Source: Desulfosudaceae bacterium
GTDB lineage: Bacteria; Desulfobacterota; Desulfobacteria; Desulfobacterales; Desulfosudaceae
DNA: 64,000 bases
Assembly: GCA_963674745.2 (NCBI GenBank)
Contig: CAXXDV010000003.1
Location: 1,184,001-1,248,000 of the forward strand
Direction of reading: 5' to 3'
In this document: positions 12,463 to 22,072 of the stretch, piece after piece
Layout of the letters: each line of letters begins with the position of its first letter
Position numbering within the stretch: the stretch's first letter is position 1
Program-made: the position numbers and the translations under genes
Notes under the pieces: generated by a model
The model's input: the letters and a program-made list of their open reading frames with translations, nothing else
Told to the model about the DNA's origin: nothing
Database searches by the model: none

Positions 12463-13548
12463 ATGATCAGTTTGATACCAAATAATGATTCCGGTCAGGC
12501 GTTGCGAATCCGGCGGGCATTGCTGGCGCTTTCCGGTTATTTCGTTATCTTTCTCGCTACCCTGATCTGTCATTACGGGGGAATGACAATCAATATCACT
12601 CTTGGTGGTATCTTCCTGCTGTATCTGTCTCTTGTGATGATTTACATCGTTGTTTTTCTTCTGATTTTTTCCGGGTTGAACCTGAAATTCAAAGATCCCA
12701 GCCTGACCGTATTTCAGCTGTTTATCGCCATCTGCTGGGCCGCGCAGATGGCTTACTTCACCAGTCCCGATATCAGGGGCAGTATTACCACGATTTATAT
12801 ATTGATGTTTATGTACGGTATTTTCCAGTTGCGGTTCCGGGAGTTCCTGGCACTCGTTGCCATGGCGGTCATGTTGTATGTTTTTTCCATGATGCTGCTT
12901 TATCACAACCATCCGGAATCGGTGGAGGTGATGACAGAAATTGTCCGCGCCATGATCCTGTTTATCGCGCTGCTGTGGGTTTCTTACATATCCACCTATG
13001 TTTTCAGATTAAGGCAAAAGGTCAAACTTCTGGCGACGCGTGATCCCCTGACAAACATTTACAACCGCAGAGAAATCCTTGAAATCCTGAAACGGGAGAA
13101 AGCATTTTCAGACCGCTTGGGGTTCCCCTTTACCCTCTGTATCCTGGACCTTGATGATTTCAAAAGAGTCAATGATACTTACGGGCACCAGGCCGGAGAC
13201 AATGTATTAAAAGCCTTTACCCGGACCATCAAAATGAATGTCCGGGCGGAGGATTATGTGGGACGTTACGGAGGAGAAGAGTTTTTTGTCATTTTTGTGA
13301 GTATTGACTGCAATGACTGCAACCCCGCCTGTGTTGAACGCCTGCTGTCGGCCACGCGGAGACTGACTTTTCCGGATATCGACAAGGACCTGCGGTTGAC
13401 CATATCCATCGGTGCCACGGCTTATATCCAGAACGGTGTTTCAGTAGACGGGCTGATATCAAGAGCGGATGAAGCCCTTTACCGGGCCAAGTCCGGCGGA
13501 AAGGACAGGGTTGAATACAGCATGCCTGTAATAAACCCGGATTTGTAG
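12463..13548 (+). CDS. Membrane-bound diguanylate cyclase (GGDEF)
   Basis: About six TM segments with an FKDPSLT motif (as recalled for SadC-like cyclases), DPLT, DLDDFKRVND, RAED I-site, GGEEF active site. Confidence 0.92.
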   Translation: MISLIPNNDSGQALRIRRALLALSGYFVIFLATLICHYGGMTINITLGGIFLLYLSLVMIYIVVFLLIFSGLNLKFKDPSLTVFQLFIAICWAAQMAYFTSPDIRGSITTIYILMFMYGIFQLRFREFLALVAMAVMLYVFSMMLLYHNHPESVEVMTEIVRAMILFIALLWVSYISTYVFRLRQKVKLLATRDPLTNIYNRREILEILKREKAFSDRLGFPFTLCILDLDDFKRVNDTYGHQAGDNVLKAFTRTIKMNVRAEDYVGRYGGEEFFVIFVSIDCNDCNPACVERLLSATRRLTFPDIDKDLRLTISIGATAYIQNGVSVDGLISRADEALYRAKSGGKDRVEYSMPVINPDL

Positions 13549-13776
13549 GGGCAGGCCCACGTGCCTGCCCTGATGAAGGGCAACCACAGGGGGTTGCCCC
13601 TACGGACCGCGGTATACGTTCTTTAATAATGTAGGGGCAGGCCCCCGTGCCTGCCCTGATGAAGGGCAACCACAGGGGGTTGCCCCTACGGACCGCGGTA
13701 TACGTTCTTTAATAATGTAGGGGCAGGCCCCCGTGCCTGCCCTGATGAAGGGCAACCACAGGGGGGGTGCCCCTAC
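13545..13776 (+). repeat. Three tandem REP doublets (period 86 bp)
   Basis: GTAG starts at 13545, 13631 and 13717; identical 27-bp linkers. Confidence 0.92.
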
Positions 13777-13994
13777 GGACCGAGGAGCGCGTGCATGAAA
13801 TATTTTAGGCGCCGGGGGCCGGGTTCAAATCAACCCGAAAAATATTCGCGTTAACCCGAATATGTTTATAAACCTGTTCAGGCAAAACGGTTATATGATT
13901 TTTTGCTAATTTTTACGTTTTTCCTTTGAAATAAGAAAACGATATATTACATTATGCTTCAATACGTTATCAATCACTCAGAAGAAAGATTGAA

Positions 13995-16900
13995 ATGCTA
14001 TCACTCCGGGCAGGCAGCGCTCTTTACCTTTTGTGGATAACTGTTTTTTGCTTGTTTCTTTCGTCGTTCCCGGTAAATGCCGGCCAGACTGTCAGGATTG
14101 TTGATCATCTTGATAAAATCCCCCTTGGCAAACATGTTGACATACTGGTTGATAAAAATAACTCATTCACCACAGATGAAGTCCTTTCCGGCAAAGCAGA
14201 AGATGAATTTGTCCCCAATGTCCGGCCGATTCCGACGTTCGGTTTTCAGAAGTCTACTTTCTGGCTCCGTTTTGATATTAAGAATTCAACCGATAAGAAT
14301 CGGCCCCTGATCCTCGAAAGCAATTGGCCCCACCATGATATCGTCGATTTTTATATTCTTAAAAATGGTAAACGCGTTTTTGAAGAACACCAGGGTGATC
14401 TTAAACCGTTAAACGGACGGGGGGAGAGATATTTAAATCCGATTTTCTCTTTTGCGCCGGCCCCCCAGGAATATTACACGGCTTATCTAAGGGTGCAGTC
14501 CAAGGCCTCCATGATCCTTGATTTTATCCTCTGGGATCCACAGGCCTTTTCCACTCATGCCATTCACAAACATTATGCCTTCGGCGTTTATTACGGTGCC
14601 ATCCTGATAATGATTTTATACAACCTGTTCCTGTTTTTCGGTATCCAGGAGAAGGTTTATTATCTTTATTACGTTCTGTTTATTGCCAGCCTGCTGTTGA
14701 TCCAAATGGTGCTGGACGGGTTTGCCCACGCTTACTTATGGCCGTCTTATCCTGGCTGGGCAAATAAATGCGTCAATATTTTCGTGTTTCTCGGGGTCTT
14801 CTGGGGAACGCTCTTCTGTCAGAAGTTTTTGAATACGGCCGTGAACACGCCGGTTTTCAACAGGCTGTTGAACGTGTTGGCCGGTTTCTCTTTTATCGGT
14901 ATCTGGGTGTTGTTTTTTACCGATGTTTTAATCGCCGGCATGCTTGCTTCGATTACAGGCATCGTATTTGCCGTATTGTCATTCGGGGCCGGGCTGGCCG
15001 GGCTGGCCAAAGGCGTCAGGGAGGCACGGTTTTTTGTTTCGGCCTCGTTCTGCCTTCTGGCCGGTATGGTTCTTGTGGCGCTGGGGTATACCGGAACCAT
15101 AGAAAAGACGTTTCTGTCAACTTTTGCCATGCACATAGGGACAACCATCCAGGCGCTGCTGCTTTCTTTCGGCCTCGTGGATCGTTTCAATGCGCTTAAA
15201 CTCGCCAACTCCCAGGCCCAGGAAGCCAACCTGAAAATGCAGGAAGCGTTTTCACAGAAACTTCAAAAAGAAATTGATCTCAAGACCCTTGATCTGAACC
15301 ACCAGAAAATTCGACTCGAGCAGGCAAACAGTGAACTTAAAAAGATCAATTCGATAAAGTCTCATTTTTTCGCCAATCTCAGCCATGAGCTGCGAACACC
15401 ATTGACCCTTATCAGAGGGTGGACCGATTATATTATAAGCGGCGAACTCGGGCAGATCCCGGAAAAATTAAAAGACATTATCCATAAAATCGATACCCAG
15501 AACCTGGCCCTGACGGAAAAAATCAACCACATGCTGAAATTGTCCAAATTTGATGCCGGCATGGCGGAACTTGTTTTATACCGGCTTGATATTGAAGATT
15601 TTATAGCCGACATCGTTACCAATTTCCGGGATCTGGCTACACACAGAAATATCGGGCTTAATTTTTCCTGCCAATCCAGAATAGATCAGGTCGCCATGGA
15701 CAAGGAAAAATTAACGGATATTCTGAATAACCTGATACGAAACGCCTATAAATTTACCGAAAGAGGTAACATCAATGTGACTTTATCTTCGATGAACAAC
15801 AACTTGATCATCGAGGTAAAGGATACCGGTGTCGGTATGGACCCGGCCAGCATGGAAAATATTTTCAACCGGTTTTATCAGGCGGAAAATTCGGAAGCCT
15901 GGAAGTTTGAGGGTACGGGACTGGGGCTGGCCATTGTCAAAGAGTCGGTCGACATGCTTCATGGTCAGATCACCGTCGAAAGCATAGAGCAGCAGGGCAC
16001 CACCTTTACCATACAGATCCCCATGAACCTGGAAAAACTGGTGCCCAACGCATTTGTTGACCGGCGCAAAAAAGACCGGAGAAAAACGGATCAGAAACAT
16101 GGTCCACAGAATCGACGACTGGGGGGCAGAAGAGAAAGCGATTTTGCGAAGATTACCGGTCAAAATATTGTCCAGATTCTGGCTGAAGACATCAAAACTG
16201 AAGACACGGATTCGGTGGTCGTTGTCGAAGCCGAAAACACAAGGGGCAAACTGGTGATCGCCGAAGACAACAAGGCGGTGCGTCTTCTGTTACAGACCAT
16301 ACTAAAAGATTATACCATGCACCTGGCGCCGAACGGCCTGCTGGCCTGGGAGGCCATTGTGAAGGAACGGCCGGATTTAATTATCTCGGATATCATGATG
16401 CCTGTAATGGACGGATATGAACTGGTTGAAAATATCAAATCCCACAAAGAAACGGAAAATATTCCCATTGTTCTGATTACGGCGACGGCTGATAAAAATG
16501 AGCGGATAAAAGGGCTTCAACTGGGAGCGAATGATTTTCTGACCAAACCCTTTCATCACCTGGAACTGAAAGCCCGCGTGAATAACGTGATCAGTCTGCG
16601 TAAGCTTTACCGGGAAAAACTCCGTACCGAGCAACTGGAAATGTTCTTGCTGGTGCTTGCTTCGGCAATTGAATCAAAAGACAAGTATACCGGCGGTCAT
16701 GTGGAACGGGTGGCTTACTATGCCCGGGACCTGGCGCAAAAAATAAGATTGCCGGAAGACAAGGTGAATGAAATTTATCTGGGAACGATCGTTCATGACA
16801 TTGGAAAAATCGGTATCCGGGATGAGGTGTTAAACAAGACCGGAAAGCTTACCGCGGCAGAGTTCGATCATATCAAGGAGCATCCCGCCATCGGTAAAAA

Positions 16901-17228
16901 TCTTCTTTCAAAACTTGAAATGCTTCCCGCCGCCGTCAATATCGCCTATGGTCATCAGGAGAAATGGGATGGTACAGGGTATCCACAGCGGCTGAAAGGG
17001 CTTGATATCCCCATAGAGGCCAGGATATCGACGGTCGCCGACTTCTGGGATGCCATCACTTCCGATCGCCCCTATCGACGGGCCATTCCGGTTATGGAAG
17101 CACTTGAAATCATGTCTGCCGAACGGGGTAAAACCTTTGACCCGCAACTGTACGACGCTTTTATGGATCAGAGCGAAAAATTGTATCTCAGATACTTAAC
17201 CAACGAGCAATTGAAAGGTTTGAACTAA
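13995..17228 (+). CDS. 7TM-DISM sensor-histidine kinase-REC-HD-GYP phosphodiesterase fusion
   Basis: DISMED2-like extracellular domain (FWLRF), 7TM (YNLFLF), H-box SHELRTPL, N/G1/G2 boxes, REC (AEDN, SDIMMP, KPF), HD-GYP (HDIGK, HQEKWDGTGYP). Confidence 0.92.
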   Translation: MLSLRAGSALYLLWITVFCLFLSSFPVNAGQTVRIVDHLDKIPLGKHVDILVDKNNSFTTDEVLSGKAEDEFVPNVRPIPTFGFQKSTFWLRFDIKNSTDKNRPLILESNWPHHDIVDFYILKNGKRVFEEHQGDLKPLNGRGERYLNPIFSFAPAPQEYYTAYLRVQSKASMILDFILWDPQAFSTHAIHKHYAFGVYYGAILIMILYNLFLFFGIQEKVYYLYYVLFIASLLLIQMVLDGFAHAYLWPSYPGWANKCVNIFVFLGVFWGTLFCQKFLNTAVNTPVFNRLLNVLAGFSFIGIWVLFFTDVLIAGMLASITGIVFAVLSFGAGLAGLAKGVREARFFVSASFCLLAGMVLVALGYTGTIEKTFLSTFAMHIGTTIQALLLSFGLVDRFNALKLANSQAQEANLKMQEAFSQKLQKEIDLKTLDLNHQKIRLEQANSELKKINSIKSHFFANLSHELRTPLTLIRGWTDYIISGELGQIPEKLKDIIHKIDTQNLALTEKINHMLKLSKFDAGMAELVLYRLDIEDFIADIVTNFRDLATHRNIGLNFSCQSRIDQVAMDKEKLTDILNNLIRNAYKFTERGNINVTLSSMNNNLIIEVKDTGVGMDPASMENIFNRFYQAENSEAWKFEGTGLGLAIVKESVDMLHGQITVESIEQQGTTFTIQIPMNLEKLVPNAFVDRRKKDRRKTDQKHGPQNRRLGGRRESDFAKITGQNIVQILAEDIKTEDTDSVVVVEAENTRGKLVIAEDNKAVRLLLQTILKDYTMHLAPNGLLAWEAIVKERPDLIISDIMMPVMDGYELVENIKSHKETENIPIVLITATADKNERIKGLQLGANDFLTKPFHHLELKARVNNVISLRKLYREKLRTEQLEMFLLVLASAIESKDKYTGGHVERVAYYARDLAQKIRLPEDKVNEIYLGTIVHDIGKIGIRDEVLNKTGKLTAAEFDHIKEHPAIGKNLLSKLEMLPAAVNIAYGHQEKWDGTGYPQRLKGLDIPIEARISTVADFWDAITSDRPYRRAIPVMEALEIMSAERGKTFDPQLYDAFMDQSEKLYLRYLTNEQLKGLN

Positions 17229-17254
17229 CATCTGATAATTGAGGATACGAATCA

Positions 17255-18973
17255 ATGGCTGATCGCTTTGAAGAGATTCGGAAGGCTAGAAGAAAAGTCA
17301 TCAAACACACGCGCTGCCGGTTTGAGAAAACCCTTGAAAGCTACCCTGTGCATGATCTTTCCGTAAAGGGCTTTTCTTTTTTATGCGACAGGGAAAAGTG
17401 CTTTTTTGACAAGAATCGGTCGTTAAACGAAATTCTTTTCTTTGATGCTGATGGCAATAAAATCATTGAAGCATCAGGAACCGTCGTTTACACCAAAACG
17501 TTCGATCAGAGCACCGTAAAGGTCGGCGCATCATTTGTATCCACTAAAATTGTTCACTCCATTCTGGGTAAGATAAGAACCACCCGTTATGTCCCTACCA
17601 TCCAGATGGATGCCGCAGTTCAAAACAGTGAAAACGGTTCTAAAGCCCATTTCAAGGGTTTTGTTGCCGATTATACCCCGTCTTCAACCCGGCTGACGTT
17701 TCCCGAAGACCGGCCCCGTGACCTTGAACTGGGTGATCTGGTTCAACTGAAGATTGAGTCAATGGGGAATGTCCTGCTGGAAGATACGGCCAATGTCATT
17801 CGCAAAAAATCAGACGGTTCCGAGCTGATCCTTCAGTTTTCAAAGAAATTCCTGGATGTCCCCAATATTGAAAGCATTTCCGAGTCTTTAAAAGACGCAA
17901 AAGAGACCCGGGAATACCTGGCCGGTTTAGATGATTACGATGCCGTCTCGGATTCGTTCAAGGCCCTGGTATCAGACTGGCGGATGTATATGACGCGTCT
18001 GAAACAGCGGCTTGACGACGAGAATTTAAAAAGCCGGTACCGGGATCATCATGAGCAGATTCATTTTTTGAAAAGCATTGAACAGGCGGTTATGGAAGAC
18101 ATGTACGGCTACATTCAAAAGCTGAACCATTTTGCAGACAGCCTGGACAAGACACAAAGTGGTTATTTCAAAAAATATTTCCGGGAAAACATGGAACCTT
18201 TTTTAAGGTCGTCACCGTTTGTCGCATCGGTTATTGATAAAGACAGGGGGTATGCCGGAAATTTTGAAATTATCAAACAGTTTTTCGACGACGACCCCTA
18301 CAAGGGCGACACCCTTTTCGCCAAAATGATCAATTGCCTGGCCTTGAGCCTTGACGCGGTCACAGCCCATCAGGACCGGATCAATTTTTTGTATGACAAT
18401 CTGATCGCCATGTATGAACAGACTGAAAAACCGTTCTCATTTTTTGTCCTGGGGTCGGGCCCCGGGGAAGAGATCCTGCGGTTTGTTGACCAAACACCGT
18501 TTACGCCGGAAAAACCGGTCCACGCGGCACTGCTTGATATGGATGCCTTTGCCCTGGTTGATTTTAAAGATCATATTCAGTATCTGGATATCAACCATTT
18601 CGAGCTGACCACGCTGAACCATAACCTTCTGAGCATTATTGCCGGCCGCGGAAAAGACCCGGTAGATACGAAATTTTCACTCACCTATTGTGCCGGTATG
18701 TTCGACTATTTTTCACTGAAAGTCTGCAAACGGATTATCCGTTACATGATCAAACATACCCAGCCGGGAGGTGTCGTCATTGTGACCAATGTCCATAAAA
18801 ATTGTTTTTCAAGAGCATTCATGGATTACGGCGGCGAATGGGAACTGGTACTTCGTGATGAGAAGGATATGGTCAGCATTGTGCCTGAAGGCCTTGCCCA
18901 TGATATTTTCCGTGATGAAAACGGCGCCAACATGTATATGAAGATATTTGTACCCGGTTCATTTTCTGACTAG
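17255..18973 (+). CDS. PilZ-domain protein fused to a class I SAM-dependent methyltransferase resembling PhcB
   Basis: N-terminal RKARR and DLSVKG PilZ motifs, a second degenerate PilZ-like domain, then RGYAGNFE, VLGSGPGEE, LLDMD, YCAGMFDYF, PGG and MDYGGEWELVLR. Confidence 0.75.
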   Translation: MADRFEEIRKARRKVIKHTRCRFEKTLESYPVHDLSVKGFSFLCDREKCFFDKNRSLNEILFFDADGNKIIEASGTVVYTKTFDQSTVKVGASFVSTKIVHSILGKIRTTRYVPTIQMDAAVQNSENGSKAHFKGFVADYTPSSTRLTFPEDRPRDLELGDLVQLKIESMGNVLLEDTANVIRKKSDGSELILQFSKKFLDVPNIESISESLKDAKETREYLAGLDDYDAVSDSFKALVSDWRMYMTRLKQRLDDENLKSRYRDHHEQIHFLKSIEQAVMEDMYGYIQKLNHFADSLDKTQSGYFKKYFRENMEPFLRSSPFVASVIDKDRGYAGNFEIIKQFFDDDPYKGDTLFAKMINCLALSLDAVTAHQDRINFLYDNLIAMYEQTEKPFSFFVLGSGPGEEILRFVDQTPFTPEKPVHAALLDMDAFALVDFKDHIQYLDINHFELTTLNHNLLSIIAGRGKDPVDTKFSLTYCAGMFDYFSLKVCKRIIRYMIKHTQPGGVVIVTNVHKNCFSRAFMDYGGEWELVLRDEKDMVSIVPEGLAHDIFRDENGANMYMKIFVPGSFSD

Positions 18974-19120
18974 CGTCCTGGCCGGGCACAGCCTGAACCA
19001 ATCCGGCAAGTAACATAAAAAGGTTTTAAAGTTTTAGGTTTTAGGGTTTTAAACGGCCCTTTTTTAATGGCTGCCACGGGAGTCAGGGGCTCTACGGGCC
19101 GAAGAGATCGTTTATGAACG

Positions 19121-19531
19121 CCCCTGTGCCTGCCCTGATGAACGACAACCACAGGGGGTTGCCCCTACAGGCCGTGGTATGCGTTCATGAAATCGTTATG
19201 TGCGTTCATGAAATCGAGGTCTGCGTTCATTAATATTGTAGGGGCAGGCCCCCGTGCCTGCCCTGATGAAGGGCAACCACAGGGGGTTGCCCCTACAGGC
19301 CGTGGTATGCGTTCATGAAATCGTTGTGTGCGTTCATGAAATCGAGGTATGCGTTCATTAATATTGTAGGGGCAGGCCCCCGTGCCTGTCCAGGTGAAGG
19401 GCAACCACAGGGGGTTGCCCCTACAGTCCGTGGTATGCGTTCATGAAATCGAGACATGCGTTCATTAATATTGTAGGGGCAGGCCCCCGTGCCTGTCCAG
19501 GTGAAGGGCAACCACAGGGGGTTGCCCCTAC
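19121..19531 (+). repeat. REP doublet array (one partial plus three full copies; periods 128, 128 and 107 bp)
   Basis: Full copies start at 19238, 19366 and 19473; linkers made of 21-bp CGTGGTATGCGTTCATGAAAT-like modules. Confidence 0.9.
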
Positions 19532-19566
19532 AGGCGGACCTTATCTGTTACTGCTCGTGTATCAAA

Positions 19567-19596
19567 TTGACAGCCGGAATCATTCCATCCTATAAT
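19567..19596 (+). promoter_or_regulatory. Consensus sigma70 promoter of the TPR-lpoB cluster
   Basis: TTGACA-18 nt-TATAAT. Confidence 0.65.
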
Positions 19597-19678: not shown

Positions 19679-20206
19679 ATGAAACGCTCTATTGTAACCC
19701 AGGTCTTACCTATCTTTTTAGCGGTCTGTCTGATCCCCGCAGCGGGATTCTGCGAAGATGTCAATATTAAAAAAGACACGGATATTACCATCAGACACAC
19801 CCGCAGTGTTGAAGGCGTGGCCGATGAAGTCATCAAGATGAAAGACTTTGACTTTGAACTGCAGCAGCGGGAAAGAGACCGCATGAAACAGTGGAATATT
19901 GAAGATTCCACCGAGGCGGTCAAGGTGGGTGATGTCTATTATGGGAAAGGCGAACTGGAAGACGCCATTGCGTTTTACCGCATCGCTATCAAGATCGATC
20001 CCGCCAATACGGAGGCGCATGAAAAATACGCTTCCGCCCGACAAGAGGAAAGTGAACAGGTCAGCACTCACTACTATCAGGCAATGGAGTATTACCGTAA
20101 GGGGATGAATGAAAAAGCCATCGATGAGCTGATCGCCGAACTCAAGGAAAATCCAGACAACGAGGAAGCCAGGATTAAGCTAAACGAAATTGAAAGTGGA
20201 CAATAA
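19679..20206 (+). CDS. Exported tetratricopeptide-repeat protein
   Basis: Signal peptide; TPR-like segments GDVYYGKGELEDAIAFYRIAIKIDP and YYRKGMNEKAIDEL. Confidence 0.8.
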   Translation: MKRSIVTQVLPIFLAVCLIPAAGFCEDVNIKKDTDITIRHTRSVEGVADEVIKMKDFDFELQQRERDRMKQWNIEDSTEAVKVGDVYYGKGELEDAIAFYRIAIKIDPANTEAHEKYASARQEESEQVSTHYYQAMEYYRKGMNEKAIDELIAELKENPDNEEARIKLNEIESGQ

Positions 20207-20217
20207 GGAGGCAGGTT

Positions 20218-20838
20218 ATGTTCCGGAACGTTTTTTCCAAAAGCATGTTTTTTATTTTTCTGACCGTTTTGGTCGCGTCATTAGCGGGATGCCGGGCAAC
20301 CACCCGTGACTATTCACCGGATGACGTTGTTCATTATGATGAAGGTTATGATTTTTCCGATAAGAACGCTATTGTCGATTACCTGGTGTCTTCCCTGGTT
20401 TCCAAGCCGCCGCTTGTATCTCGTTATGACCGGCCGGTAATGATTGTGTACGGGGTGGCCAATCGTACCTCGGAACACATTGAAACCAGCGGTATTACCG
20501 ATGATATCCGAATGAAAATTCTTCAGTCCGGCAAAGCCCGGTTTGTTAACAAGGTTCAACGGGACAATATTGCCGAAGAAACGGCATACCAGTACGGTGG
20601 TAATGTCAGTCCGGAAACCCGTCTTCAGCGGGCCCGGCAGATCGGGGCGGAATACATGCTCTCCGGCACCCTGCGTTCCATCAAAAAGAAGCAACCCAAG
20701 CAGGTGCGGCTGAAAAAGAAAACCCTTCAATATTACAGTCTGACCCTGGAGCTTACGGACCTGCAGTCCGGTCTGATCGAATGGACGGATAACGCGGAAA
20801 TCGTCCGGGAATCTTCAAAACCGTTCATCGGCTGGTAA
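20218..20838 (+). CDS. lpoB: Penicillin-binding protein activator LpoB-family lipoprotein
   Basis: Lipobox LAGC; VANRTSEHI, GAEYMLSGTL and LTLELTDLQSGLIEW motifs. Confidence 0.8.
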   Translation: MFRNVFSKSMFFIFLTVLVASLAGCRATTRDYSPDDVVHYDEGYDFSDKNAIVDYLVSSLVSKPPLVSRYDRPVMIVYGVANRTSEHIETSGITDDIRMKILQSGKARFVNKVQRDNIAEETAYQYGGNVSPETRLQRARQIGAEYMLSGTLRSIKKKQPKQVRLKKKTLQYYSLTLELTDLQSGLIEWTDNAEIVRESSKPFIGW

Positions 20839-20857
20839 CAGCCGGTCGAAATGACGC

Positions 20858-22072
20858 ATGCCTGACATGACCAGATCTTCCGGTACCAACCGGCAACACA
20901 GAATTTTTGTCCGCTGGATCTGTTTCCTGCTGATGGGTGCCGGCCTGGCGCTTTGCGGATGCACTTCTTCCAATCTGACCCTGGCCCGGAACGCTTTTTA
21001 CAGCGGTGATGTCGTCATGGCATCACAGGCGCTGGACGAGCCGGAGAAGGTCGGCTCCCGGGACCGGCTTCTTTATTTTATGGAAAAAGGGACCATTCTG
21101 CATTACGGCGGTGATTATGAAGGCAGTGCGGCTATTTTTCTCCAGGCCGCCGCCTTGATCACAGAACAGGAGGTGATCAGTGCCACCCGGCAGGCCGCCT
21201 CCATGGTGACAACCGAGTGGCTGACAAAGTACAAAGGCGAATATGTCGAACGGCTTTTTGTCCATACGTTCCAGATGATGAATTATCTGCTGCTGGGTAA
21301 GCATGAAAGTGCCCTGGTCGAAGCCAAGCAGGCGCTGGAAGTTTACGACACTTATCCCGAAGCCTGCGACGGCGATTATTTCACAAGGGCTCTGATCGCG
21401 CATTGTTTTGAAGCCCTGGACGAAATAAACGGGGCCTATATTGAATATAAGAAACTGGCTGAACTGATGGGGAATCCAGCGCCTGTGGCTGATAAACTCT
21501 GTCAACTGGCCAACCGGCTGGGTTTTTACGATGAAGTTGAGCATTTCAGCCAGTTTCTGCCGGACAAAAATGAAGAAAAGAGAGAAAGGCCGATCGGTGA
21601 AAGGCTGATATTTTTAAGCCGGGGCAGAGCACCGGTGAAAATTCCGCATGATATTATTCTGCCCGAATCCATTCGCTTTTCTTTTTCCACCTATGAGAAC
21701 CGGGGCGGTTATTTCCCGGGCCCGGAAATTCCGCCGTTACCGGGGATCGGGACCAGGACCCGGGTTACCACGGATGTCGGCAAGGTACTGCGCGCATCCC
21801 TGGATCAACGGCTGGCGCGGATCATCGCCAAGGAAACCGCCCGGGTGGTGGCCAAGGAAGCCATTGCCAACAACATCAATGATAGTGGTGTTGAGTCCCT
21901 GGTGCGTATTGCCTTTTTCCTGATGGAAGTGCCTGATACCCGCTGCTGGGAAACCCTGCCCGGGACCCTGACCCTGATCCGGGAGCCTGTTTTTCCGGGA
22001 GACAATGAACAGGCCGCGGACGGTCCGGATAACCCTGATCGCTTTTATCGTTATTTTTCAATCAGAAATTGA
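20858..22072 (+). CDS. COG3014-like TPR lipoprotein
   Basis: Lipobox LCGC; DRLLYFMEKG, YKGEYVE, ALVEAK and DTRCWETLP motifs; adjacent to lpoB as is usual for this family. Confidence 0.7.
   Translation: MPDMTRSSGTNRQHRIFVRWICFLLMGAGLALCGCTSSNLTLARNAFYSGDVVMASQALDEPEKVGSRDRLLYFMEKGTILHYGGDYEGSAAIFLQAAALITEQEVISATRQAASMVTTEWLTKYKGEYVERLFVHTFQMMNYLLLGKHESALVEAKQALEVYDTYPEACDGDYFTRALIAHCFEALDEINGAYIEYKKLAELMGNPAPVADKLCQLANRLGFYDEVEHFSQFLPDKNEEKRERPIGERLIFLSRGRAPVKIPHDIILPESIRFSFSTYENRGGYFPGPEIPPLPGIGTRTRVTTDVGKVLRASLDQRLARIIAKETARVVAKEAIANNINDSGVESLVRIAFFLMEVPDTRCWETLPGTLTLIREPVFPGDNEQAADGPDNPDRFYRYFSIRN

Follow-up and report, generated by a model that had tools for sequence, protein, structure and literature searches.

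A two-gene unit of a tandem-PilZ PhcB-family methyltransferase and a hybrid kinase-phosphodiesterase in a Desulfosudaceae bacterium: a possible link between a lipid methyl ester and c-di-GMP

Introduction

The Phc system is encoded by phcBSRQ: PhcB makes 3-OH PAME, the methyl ester of 3-hydroxypalmitic acid, or 3-OH MAME, that of 3-hydroxymyristic acid, PhcS senses the signal and the output proceeds via the LysR regulator PhcA. In the diffusible signal factor (DSF) system RpfF-RpfC-RpfG, a lipid signal controls the degradation of cyclic di-GMP (c-di-GMP). Here we describe a locus of a Desulfosudaceae bacterium, located in a window of 64,000 nucleotides (nt; the whole stretch of DNA that was analysed), in which the gene for a hybrid sensor kinase-phosphodiesterase is directly followed by that for a PhcB-family S-adenosylmethionine (SAM) methyltransferase with two N-terminal PilZ-like barrels. 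From domain content, intact motifs, homology and linkage we infer a two-gene, Phc-derived unit in which the synthase of a lipid methyl ester is gated by c-di-GMP, its ester addresses the kinase and the kinase-phosphodiesterase closes the loop; we give this reading a probability of about 0.45.

As in the Phc system of Ralstonia and Cupriavidus, a methyltransferase, here of a homologous sister clade, is encoded beside a membrane histidine kinase (HK). The window enzyme differs from PhcB in an additional N-terminal PilZ domain with intact c-di-GMP motifs and in an Asp-to-Asn exchange that turns GYAGD into GYAGN, and the window kinase differs from PhcS in that its gene lies upstream, its sensor is of the non-homologous 7TM-DISM type and its output is a fused REC-HD-GYP. 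phcR and phcQ are not in the unit: the genes downstream (19679-22072) code for a tetratricopeptide repeat (TPR), an LpoB-like and a lipoprotein-like protein (the latter of 404 amino acids, aa), and the flanks differ at every orthologous locus. By sequence comparison the enzyme belongs to the PhcB family and the unit is not a phcBSRQ locus; it would work like a Phc or DSF circuit.

Control of c-di-GMP degradation by a lipid signal is also described for RpfF-RpfR of the Burkholderia diffusible signal factor (BDSF) system (PMC8846402; here and below, statements on cited sources refer to the accessible part of their text). The present locus differs from the DSF and BDSF systems in the chemistry of the synthase, in the kinase, receiver and HD-GYP domains being joined in a single chain, and in a synthase that itself carries a predicted c-di-GMP sensor. 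Lipid synthases that are fused to a sensor of cyclic nucleotides, or that such a sensor gates, are exemplified by NasP (cyclic AMP) and by Nas343 and Nas354 (NAS-PilZ); these are, however, N-acyltransferases, the accessible text describes no paired kinase-phosphodiesterase for them, and control of NAS-PilZ by c-di-GMP is proposed there, not shown (PMC4897644).

Results

Layout and linkage of the two genes

Three open reading frames (ORFs) lie co-oriented on the + strand. The first, at 12463-13548, codes for 361 aa, the second, at 13995-17228, for 1077 aa and the third, at 17255-18973, for 572 aa; a gap of 26 nt (17228/17255) separates the second from the third, just as the original prediction, made from the DNA letters alone, had described them. 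The features of the kinase and methyltransferase genes are as follows:

13995..17228, + strand: hybrid sensor kinase-phosphodiesterase, core gene 1, with the domain order DISMED2-7TM-HisKA (H464)-HATPase-Arg-rich linker-REC (D799)-HD-GYP
14127..15185, + strand: 7TMR-DISM sensor (DISMED2 at aa 45-181, 7TM at aa 193-397), without homology to the PhcS-type six-helix sensor
16062..16142, + strand: Arg-rich linker between HATPase and REC with tandem RxxxRR (R691/R695/R696 and R708/R712/R713)
17255..18973, + strand: tandem-PilZ PhcB-family SAM methyltransferase, core gene 2, assigned by BLASTP against PhcB, tree and fold match
17276..17551, + strand: first PilZ barrel, in which R9xxxR13 and D34xS36xxG39 (D34-L-S36-x-x-G39) are intact
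17609..17839, + strand: second PilZ-like barrel with degenerate motifs
18260..18262, + strand: N336 in GYAGN, where other PhcB-family groups have Asp (GYAGD); a possible specificity change

The kinase gene lies directly upstream of the methyltransferase gene in eight of nine other genomes (L001, L002, L003, G001, G002, G005, G027 and G109), as synteny of the pair had been anticipated; the gaps range from -4 to 94 nt, the kinase orthologues are 55-71% identical and the flanking genes are unrelated each time. Of 401 genomes sampled evenly from the class, 24 match the kinase family. In all four with a 7TM-DISM kinase the methyltransferase gene adjoins that of the kinase, and a full-length copy of the methyltransferase was found in none of the 20 with other sensors, these being counts among related genomes and not a statistical test. 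The original prediction had also included the upstream cyclase and, speculatively, as exporter of a signal, a TolC-membrane fusion protein (MFP)-resistance-nodulation-division (RND) pump. Neither addition stood up: the cyclase gene is upstream of the kinase gene in none of the six loci with upstream DNA visible, and no TolC/MFP/RND match was obtained in loci L001-L008, L084, L087 and L111-L129. The conserved unit therefore has two genes, since neither the cyclase nor the pump is conserved beside the pair.

The methyltransferase is a relative of PhcB

The methyltransferase is 28% identical to PhcB of C. necator N-1 (P0055) over 389 aa (BLASTP, E 2e-41). A genome scan with the methyltransferase alignment found loci of Cupriavidus in which a methyltransferase gene is followed by genes for a kinase, a REC-kinase and a REC protein, to which the order phcBSRQ corresponds (PMC2842291). 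The annotation '3-hydroxypalmitic acid methyl ester biosynthesis protein' of JGI stands on 6 of 43 homologues, and homology to PhcB is thus already visible in databases through KEGG-style automatic names on relatives; the close relatives named by their sources are Desulfobacterales, and from this kinship the bacterium is taken to be of the sulfate-reducer type. In a tree of 34 catalytic regions, ten tandem-PilZ rows and 14 PhcB rows are set against ten more distant ones with a Shimodaira-Hasegawa-like approximate likelihood ratio (SH-aLRT) support of 96. Here the tandem-PilZ clade is the sister of the PhcB clade and is not nested within it, and a tree of 69 rows agrees; both are quick trees only. 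The relationship to PhcB that had been predicted is upheld by these data, no grouping away from PhcB being observed. Of 87 PhcB-conserved columns, 46 are retained, the SAM motifs among them, but the invariant Asp of GYAGD is replaced by Asn in 23 of 23 enzymes of the window clade.

The protein as a whole has no Pfam or NCBIfam match. An AlphaFold2 model (41-sequence alignment, predicted local distance difference test score (pLDDT) 85) comprises a pair of beta barrels together with a helical region and a Rossmann fold, and is matched in Foldseek by class I methyltransferases and MrkH. Sequence searches of solved structures with the window methyltransferase, PhcB and a Rhizobium relative returned nothing significant. 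Among 48,161 chains the best fold match is 3OCJ (Z 19.6, root-mean-square deviation 3.1, 248 residues aligned), the next ones having Z values of 17.0-17.2. 3OCJ is an orthologue of the fatty-acid methyltransferase FmtB of Bordetella with a probable palmitate in its cavity, and for FmtB the accessible text reports in vivo evidence of fatty-acid methyl ester formation and no in vitro activity (PMC5426589). FmtB has a helical lid and a Rossmann fold and is the best structural match to the catalytic region of the window enzyme; it is, however, only 12% identical to it, has no PilZ domains and is described, as far as the accessible text goes, as monocistronic and not as a signal synthase (PMC5426589). 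The assignment as a putative fatty-acyl O-methyltransferase is well supported, because PhcB homology, trees and the match to 3OCJ/FmtB concur; a methyl ester of a 3-hydroxy fatty acid, for which the 3OCJ/FmtB match gives indirect support, would be a candidate product.

The PhcB-like family comprises 673 protein clusters at E up to 1e-30, and PhcB-sensor pairs occur in Betaproteobacteria, Verrucomicrobiota, Planctomycetota, Spirochaetota and Desulfobacterales. A further PhcB-like family (P0238-P0266) has about 590-600 aa and N-terminal RRxxxR and DhSxxG motifs. One tandem-PilZ PhcB gene (L006:9986-11685) is broken into two overlapping ORFs by a frameshift or an assembly error. Divergently upstream of a sister-clade tandem-PilZ PhcB gene, L005:551-9045 contains a polyketide synthase/FabA cluster and a ketosynthase III, which could provide an acyl substrate. 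On a Rhizobium plasmid (L278) a distant PhcB-like methyltransferase gene is divergent from a GGDEF-EAL gene, and a phcBS-like cluster on a Paraburkholderia plasmid (L276) has a cyclopropane fatty-acyl synthase gene upstream.

Two PilZ-like barrels precede the catalytic region

The fusion of PilZ to a SAM methyltransferase had been recognised correctly in the original prediction, except that there are two PilZ-like barrels and not one. The strands of barrel 1 lie at residues 20-99 of the model. Pfam PilZ matches residues 8-95 weakly (E 0.013, below cut-off), and 27 of 30 Atlas matches for this barrel are PilZ proteins with scores of 0.91-0.92. The PilZ motifs for c-di-GMP are defined as RxxxR and [D/N]hSxxG (10.1101/814665). 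Both are found in barrel 1, which would therefore qualify as a c-di-GMP receptor and agrees with the predicted link of the methyltransferase to c-di-GMP; binding is suggested by the motifs. They are present in 22 of 23 clade members (at least 58% identity), the remaining one being truncated; the other 18 aligned relatives keep RxxxR, with Asp changed to Glu in 16 and two truncated.

In barrel 2 neither motif is found, the corresponding sequences being R111-Y-V-P-T and D139-Y-T-P-S-S, and a Pfam PilZ match at 114-202 of the relative P0029 supports its PilZ-like nature. A hidden Markov model test of barrel 2 against the N-terminal domain of PhcB gave 7 of 70 hits at P<1e-3, compared with 0 of 70 for shuffled sequences; hhalign gave no significant result for this pair, and an alignment-free fold of C. 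necator PhcB reached a pLDDT of 36. PhcB's own N-terminal domain thus appears to be weakly homologous to barrel 2, and for this reason barrel 1 is regarded as the added domain.

The kinase-phosphodiesterase and its Arg-rich linker

All Pfam matches of the kinase (DISMED2, 7TM-DISM, HisKA, HATPase, REC and HD_5) are above cut-off and its catalytic motifs H464, D799, HDIGK and HQEKWDGTGYP are intact, so the domain assignments offered earlier for this protein hold, as do those for the cyclase. The REC Asp, the HD and the HHExxDGxGYP-type motifs point to an HD-GYP of the RpfG type. At least 257 proteins make up the family of its HK-REC-HD-GYP core; the sensors of 120 listed members are 7TM-DISM in 17, HisKA_7TM in 37, PhcS-type in 32 and periplasmic-binding in five, none being assigned in 29. 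Direct descent of the window kinase from the PhcS-type HK-REC-HK of the sister clade was considered and is not supported, as its core groups with Desulfobacterales HK-REC-HD-GYP proteins. Elsewhere in the genome of the window (G000), C3:1523946-1527164 (L212) encodes a distant paralogue of 30% identity that shares the domain string of the window kinase but lacks the Arg-rich linker; no methyltransferase gene lies near it. A complex prediction for the methyltransferase with kinase residues 678-1077 scored 0.00, which weighs neither way.

The linker, which the original prediction did not mention, has R691, R695, R696, R708, R712 and R713 in every one of 30 aligned kinases, even at an identity of 32%. 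Similar Arg repeats are present in three sister-clade kinases; among PhcS-type fusion kinases encoded next to PhcB genes that lack barrel 1, none of the 23 that were parsed has them (35 of 62 could not be parsed). As the linker is present in most of the kinase family, it was rejected as a trait specific to PhcB partners. A simple Arg linker motif occurs in 2 of 4595 ORFs of the genome and in 0-2 of shuffled ones, and hence only the conservation of the linker carries weight. The linker resembles the ARR of Cle, a c-di-GMP-binding peptide with tandem Arg motifs beside a receiver domain (PMC5677366), but in the window protein it precedes REC within a hybrid kinase and has tandem RxxxRR instead of the Cle-type tandem [YF]xGPx[RK]R consensus, which it does not match. 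A sister-clade kinase (in L005) has an exact [YF]xGPxRR match. The linker may be a second c-di-GMP site and an input to the kinase.

PhcS-type sensors beside PhcB-family enzymes

In 127 of 135 PhcB-type loci a gene for a six-helix 'YYAG' sensor of the PhcS type lies directly downstream, six of the others being at a contig edge and two without it; the loci are the best 80 of each of two scans and not a census, and the count is partly circular, as the sensor profile was built from 95 of the counted sensors. A PhcS-type sensor (in HK-REC-HK) follows the enzyme also in its nearest tandem-PilZ relatives (L004, L005, L006), and others, as fusions to SpoIIE, HK-REC or PAS-HD-GYP, adjoin PhcB-like enzymes of Desulfobacterales that are more distant; in six loci (L122, L242-L245, L247) a sensor-PAS-HD-GYP gene comes directly after the PhcB-like gene. 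Nearly all members of the PhcB family adjoin a membrane sensor gene. Pfam MASE8 describes PhcS-type sensors poorly (E 0.54 once and elsewhere no match over cut-off).

The window kinase is not matched by the PhcS-sensor profile, and a profile-profile comparison of its 7TM-DISM sensor with the PhcS-type sensor gave a probability of 1%. Since the sensor has no homology to the PhcS type, the kinase is not a counterpart of PhcS. Of the proposal that it is a PhcS-like sensor of the product, the adjacency to the enzyme remains; the sensor type differs, and the sensing of the product rests on the co-variation described below. Pairs of a tandem-PilZ PhcB and a PhcS-type-sensor HK-REC-HD-GYP protein occur in spirochaetes under consecutive accessions (HUX12039/HUX12040 and MCG8453098/MCG8453097) and, as a divergent pair, in L131. 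The spirochaete pairs correspond in predicted architecture to the system that the original prediction had imagined, with a proper PhcS-type receptor, and the window to a sensor-swapped version of it.

PhcB-like enzymes beside PhcS-type sensors with PAS-HD-GYP or HK-REC were noted in L122, L242-L245 and L247 and in L124-L127, some of these loci also carrying REC-GGDEF genes. A cyclic nucleoside monophosphate-binding N-terminus of the PhcB-like enzyme was confirmed by Pfam in L118, L122 and L124. In L117 (by Pfam), L121, L123 and L250 the PhcB-like enzyme is followed by a fusion of a PhcS-type sensor to a SpoIIE/PP2C phosphatase, with an additional second sensor-PAS-kinase in L121 and L123.

The genome of the window encodes two stand-alone proteins that are possible receptors or eavesdroppers, namely a PhcS-type-sensor-PAS-HD-GYP protein (G000 C3:1333015-1334883, L210) and a PhcS-type-sensor-GGDEF protein (G000 C3:1648962-1650191, L211). 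A close match to the L210 sensor is present in 12 of 12 genomes of the same family, only three of which have the methyltransferase; L210 therefore does not track the enzyme and was rejected as its dedicated receptor. L210 adjoins the ORF of a 2313-aa PfaA-like synthase.

Sensor and partner enzyme vary together

The sensor of the kinase family changes with the partner enzyme, be it a thioesterase, a PilZ-methyltransferase or a PhcB-family enzyme, and on these grounds the two are considered to vary together. Wide flanks were examined for 11 of 18 genomes whose kinase relative was neither 7TM-DISM nor PhcS-type. In all 11 loci a gene of about 244 aa lies directly upstream of the kinase relative, and the six of these proteins that were scanned consist of PilZ and a hotdog thioesterase. 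In G257, a 1070-aa PilZ-methyltransferase is encoded upstream of a PhcS-type kinase relative. This co-variation is the main support for the assumption that the kinase senses the product of its enzyme.

The 11 loci with the thioesterase (L214:8199-11561 and L256-L265) have PilZ-thioesterase (4HBT_2) directly upstream of a membrane HK-REC-HD-GYP of about 873 aa and represent a candidate c-di-GMP-gated system for free-fatty-acid signals. In L255:3727-9452 and L266:6552-13536, PilZ-methyltransferases of 1070-1077 aa are encoded upstream of kinases with a PhcS-type sensor, whose REC-HD-GYP is either fused or separate; neither methyltransferase is matched by the PhcB-family profile.

Neighbouring genes and repeats

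The surroundings of the unit hold the following features:

12463..13548, + strand: membrane GGEEF diguanylate cyclase, a real gene; a neighbour and not a member of the conserved unit
13544..13801, no strand: three 86-nt GTAG-type repetitive extragenic palindromic (REP)-like repeats, a genome-wide palindromic element outside the signalling system
13926..13955, + strand: promoter-like site 5' of the kinase gene (9 of 12 consensus positions; the count of such sites in the region is not above that in shuffles)
19043..19060, + strand: terminator-like hairpin 3' of the methyltransferase gene, a consensus match only
19120..19535, no strand: four further copies of the GTAG-type REP-like element, downstream of the two-gene unit

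The cyclase matches Pfam GGDEF (E 8e-39), with GGEEF at residue 270 and an RxxD I-site upstream of it. It is separated from the kinase gene by 446 nt that contain the three repeats and the promoter-like site, and for this reason the three co-oriented genes probably do not form a single operon. Three paralogues of the cyclase, 46-70% identical, are encoded elsewhere in the genome of the window; its best relatives in G002, G005 and G027 reach 40-48% identity and lie on contigs other than that of the unit, and the relative search found none in G439 or G441. The idea that the membrane domain of the cyclase is a PhcS-type sensor was rejected, as it is not PhcS-like in a profile-profile comparison. 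The GTAG-type element has 195 copies of at least 50 nt across the genome. A perfect sigma-70 consensus (19567-19596) precedes the TPR, LpoB-like and lipoprotein-like genes, which are unrelated to the unit.

Discussion

By analogy to PhcB, the 572-aa protein would use SAM to methylate the carboxyl group of a fatty-acyl substrate to yield a diffusible lipid methyl ester; esters of this type are signals sensed by a kinase (PMC11960443). c-di-GMP from the general pool of the cell would bind to barrel 1 and gate this activity, be it up or down; there is precedent for acyl synthases gated by cyclic nucleotides (PMC4897644). A cue perceived by the 7TM-DISM sensor would lead to autophosphorylation of H464 and, in cis, to phosphorylation of D799, and this would switch the HD-GYP domain, whose activity is controlled by phosphorylated REC in characterised proteins (10.1101/2021.11.05.467447). 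Most likely, the enzyme itself makes this cue as its product, closing a feedback between signal and c-di-GMP; this is the weakest step and we put it at about even odds. The Arg-rich linker might add a second c-di-GMP input. As to its origin, a tandem-PilZ PhcB lineage that elsewhere resides beside PhcS-type sensors may have been re-paired here with a 7TM-DISM kinase-phosphodiesterase.

Several points weigh against this closed loop. Only one type of receptor is known for products of PhcB, and the 7TM-DISM sensor has no relationship to it. PhcS-type sensors, which could be the real receptors, are present elsewhere in nine of ten enzyme-bearing genomes. The ninth genome of the synteny comparison, G238, has an 81% identical enzyme at the start of a contig with a repeat element within 104 nt upstream, and no 7TM-DISM kinase was found in this genome (91% complete, 350 contigs). 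The co-variation of sensor and enzyme comes down to three or four evolutionary events, and a loss of activity through N336 in place of an otherwise near-invariant Asp is possible.

The alternative that fares best is an open chain: the kinase would sense an outside cue (a carbohydrate, a surface or an ion) via DISMED2, c-di-GMP would gate the enzyme, and the readers of the ester would be PhcS-type sensors encoded elsewhere in the genome, or else other species. DISMED2 is indeed a predicted carbohydrate binder (PMC8846402), the genome encodes the two stand-alone PhcS-type-sensor proteins, one of them with the sensor-PAS-HD-GYP architecture that directly follows PhcB-like enzymes in six other loci, and G238 apparently makes do with the enzyme. 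However, the L210-like sensor does not track the enzyme, no PhcS-type sensor match was obtained in the enzyme-bearing genome G440 (its completeness is not given), and a direct pair of ligand and receptor accounts better for the fact that the sensor and the residues of the enzyme changed together. We regard an open chain as possible and yet rather unlikely.

The residue changes could also mean that the methyltransferase of this clade has lost catalysis and that the protein, as a binder of c-di-GMP and lipid, regulates the kinase instead. Asn is at position 336 in 23 of 23 window-clade enzymes, compared with Asp in 133 of 133 PhcB-type and 25 of 25 spirochaete-clade enzymes, in 95% of 19 from the sister clade, in 12 of 12 that are more distant and in 132 of 145 further representatives (all 132 that bear the motif, which was not found in the other 13). 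In addition, L533 replaces His/Tyr in the window clade, and the PhcS-type receptor was lost from the unit at the same node as the residues changed. The SAM-binding GxGP, D428, YCAGxFDY, H372/R375 and TNV are, however, intact, and the methyltransferase domain is the most conserved region of the protein (67-89%, versus 46-76% for the helical region). A dead enzyme is therefore improbable; retention of the SAM motifs and of a catalytic domain better conserved than any other part favours a changed specificity over lost activity, and the Asp-to-Asn and His/Tyr-to-Leu changes may mark an altered product.

A role outside signalling, with the enzyme methylating fatty acids or another metabolite under c-di-GMP control (an FmtB-like function in the membrane or in detoxification) and the kinase as a mere upstream regulator, has little probability: the closest solved structure is that of an FmtB orthologue, for which the accessible text describes no signalling role, yet the sequence of the enzyme is much closer to PhcB, and a membrane sensor gene is the usual neighbour in the family. 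A closed unit of cyclase, kinase and methyltransferase with the upstream RND pump as exporter is highly improbable and already largely refuted by synteny, despite the common orientation of the genes in the window and the intact GGEEF and I-site of the cyclase, given the missing conservation of cyclase and pump, the distant cyclase relatives, the repeats and promoter-like site in front of the kinase gene and a cyclase membrane domain unlike PhcS.

The closed two-gene loop can be placed in a wider, more doubtful frame. Anaerobic Desulfobacterales and spirochaetes might share a modular, so far undescribed chassis for signalling between cells in which HK-(Arg linker)-REC-HD-GYP is always accompanied by a lipid-tailoring enzyme fused to PilZ; the sensor would be swapped together with this enzyme, each pair being a chemical dialect. 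The dialect of the window would be an altered-loop PhcB making a new methylated lipid, the ligand of the 7TM-DISM sensor, with c-di-GMP feedback on the synthase through PilZ and on the kinase through the RxxxRR linker.

Neither PilZ-PhcB fusions nor homologues of PhcB outside Ralstonia/Cupriavidus were the subject of any publication that our search found; the chemistry of PhcB in subscription papers, and supplements, were outside this search. Phc signalling is described in the literature searched solely for Ralstonia and Cupriavidus, and the pairs reported here extend to further phyla. PhcB-sensor pairs in anaerobic lineages end in c-di-GMP phosphodiesterases, and the pair of the window probably links a self-made lipid signal to c-di-GMP. 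If the proposed loop is true, an orphan 7TM-DISM receptor would gain a candidate ligand and a hybrid kinase a candidate site for c-di-GMP, and biofilms of sulfate reducers, in sediments and in corrosion, would have a lipid-ester signal that is directly coupled to c-di-GMP and whose synthase is itself under c-di-GMP control.

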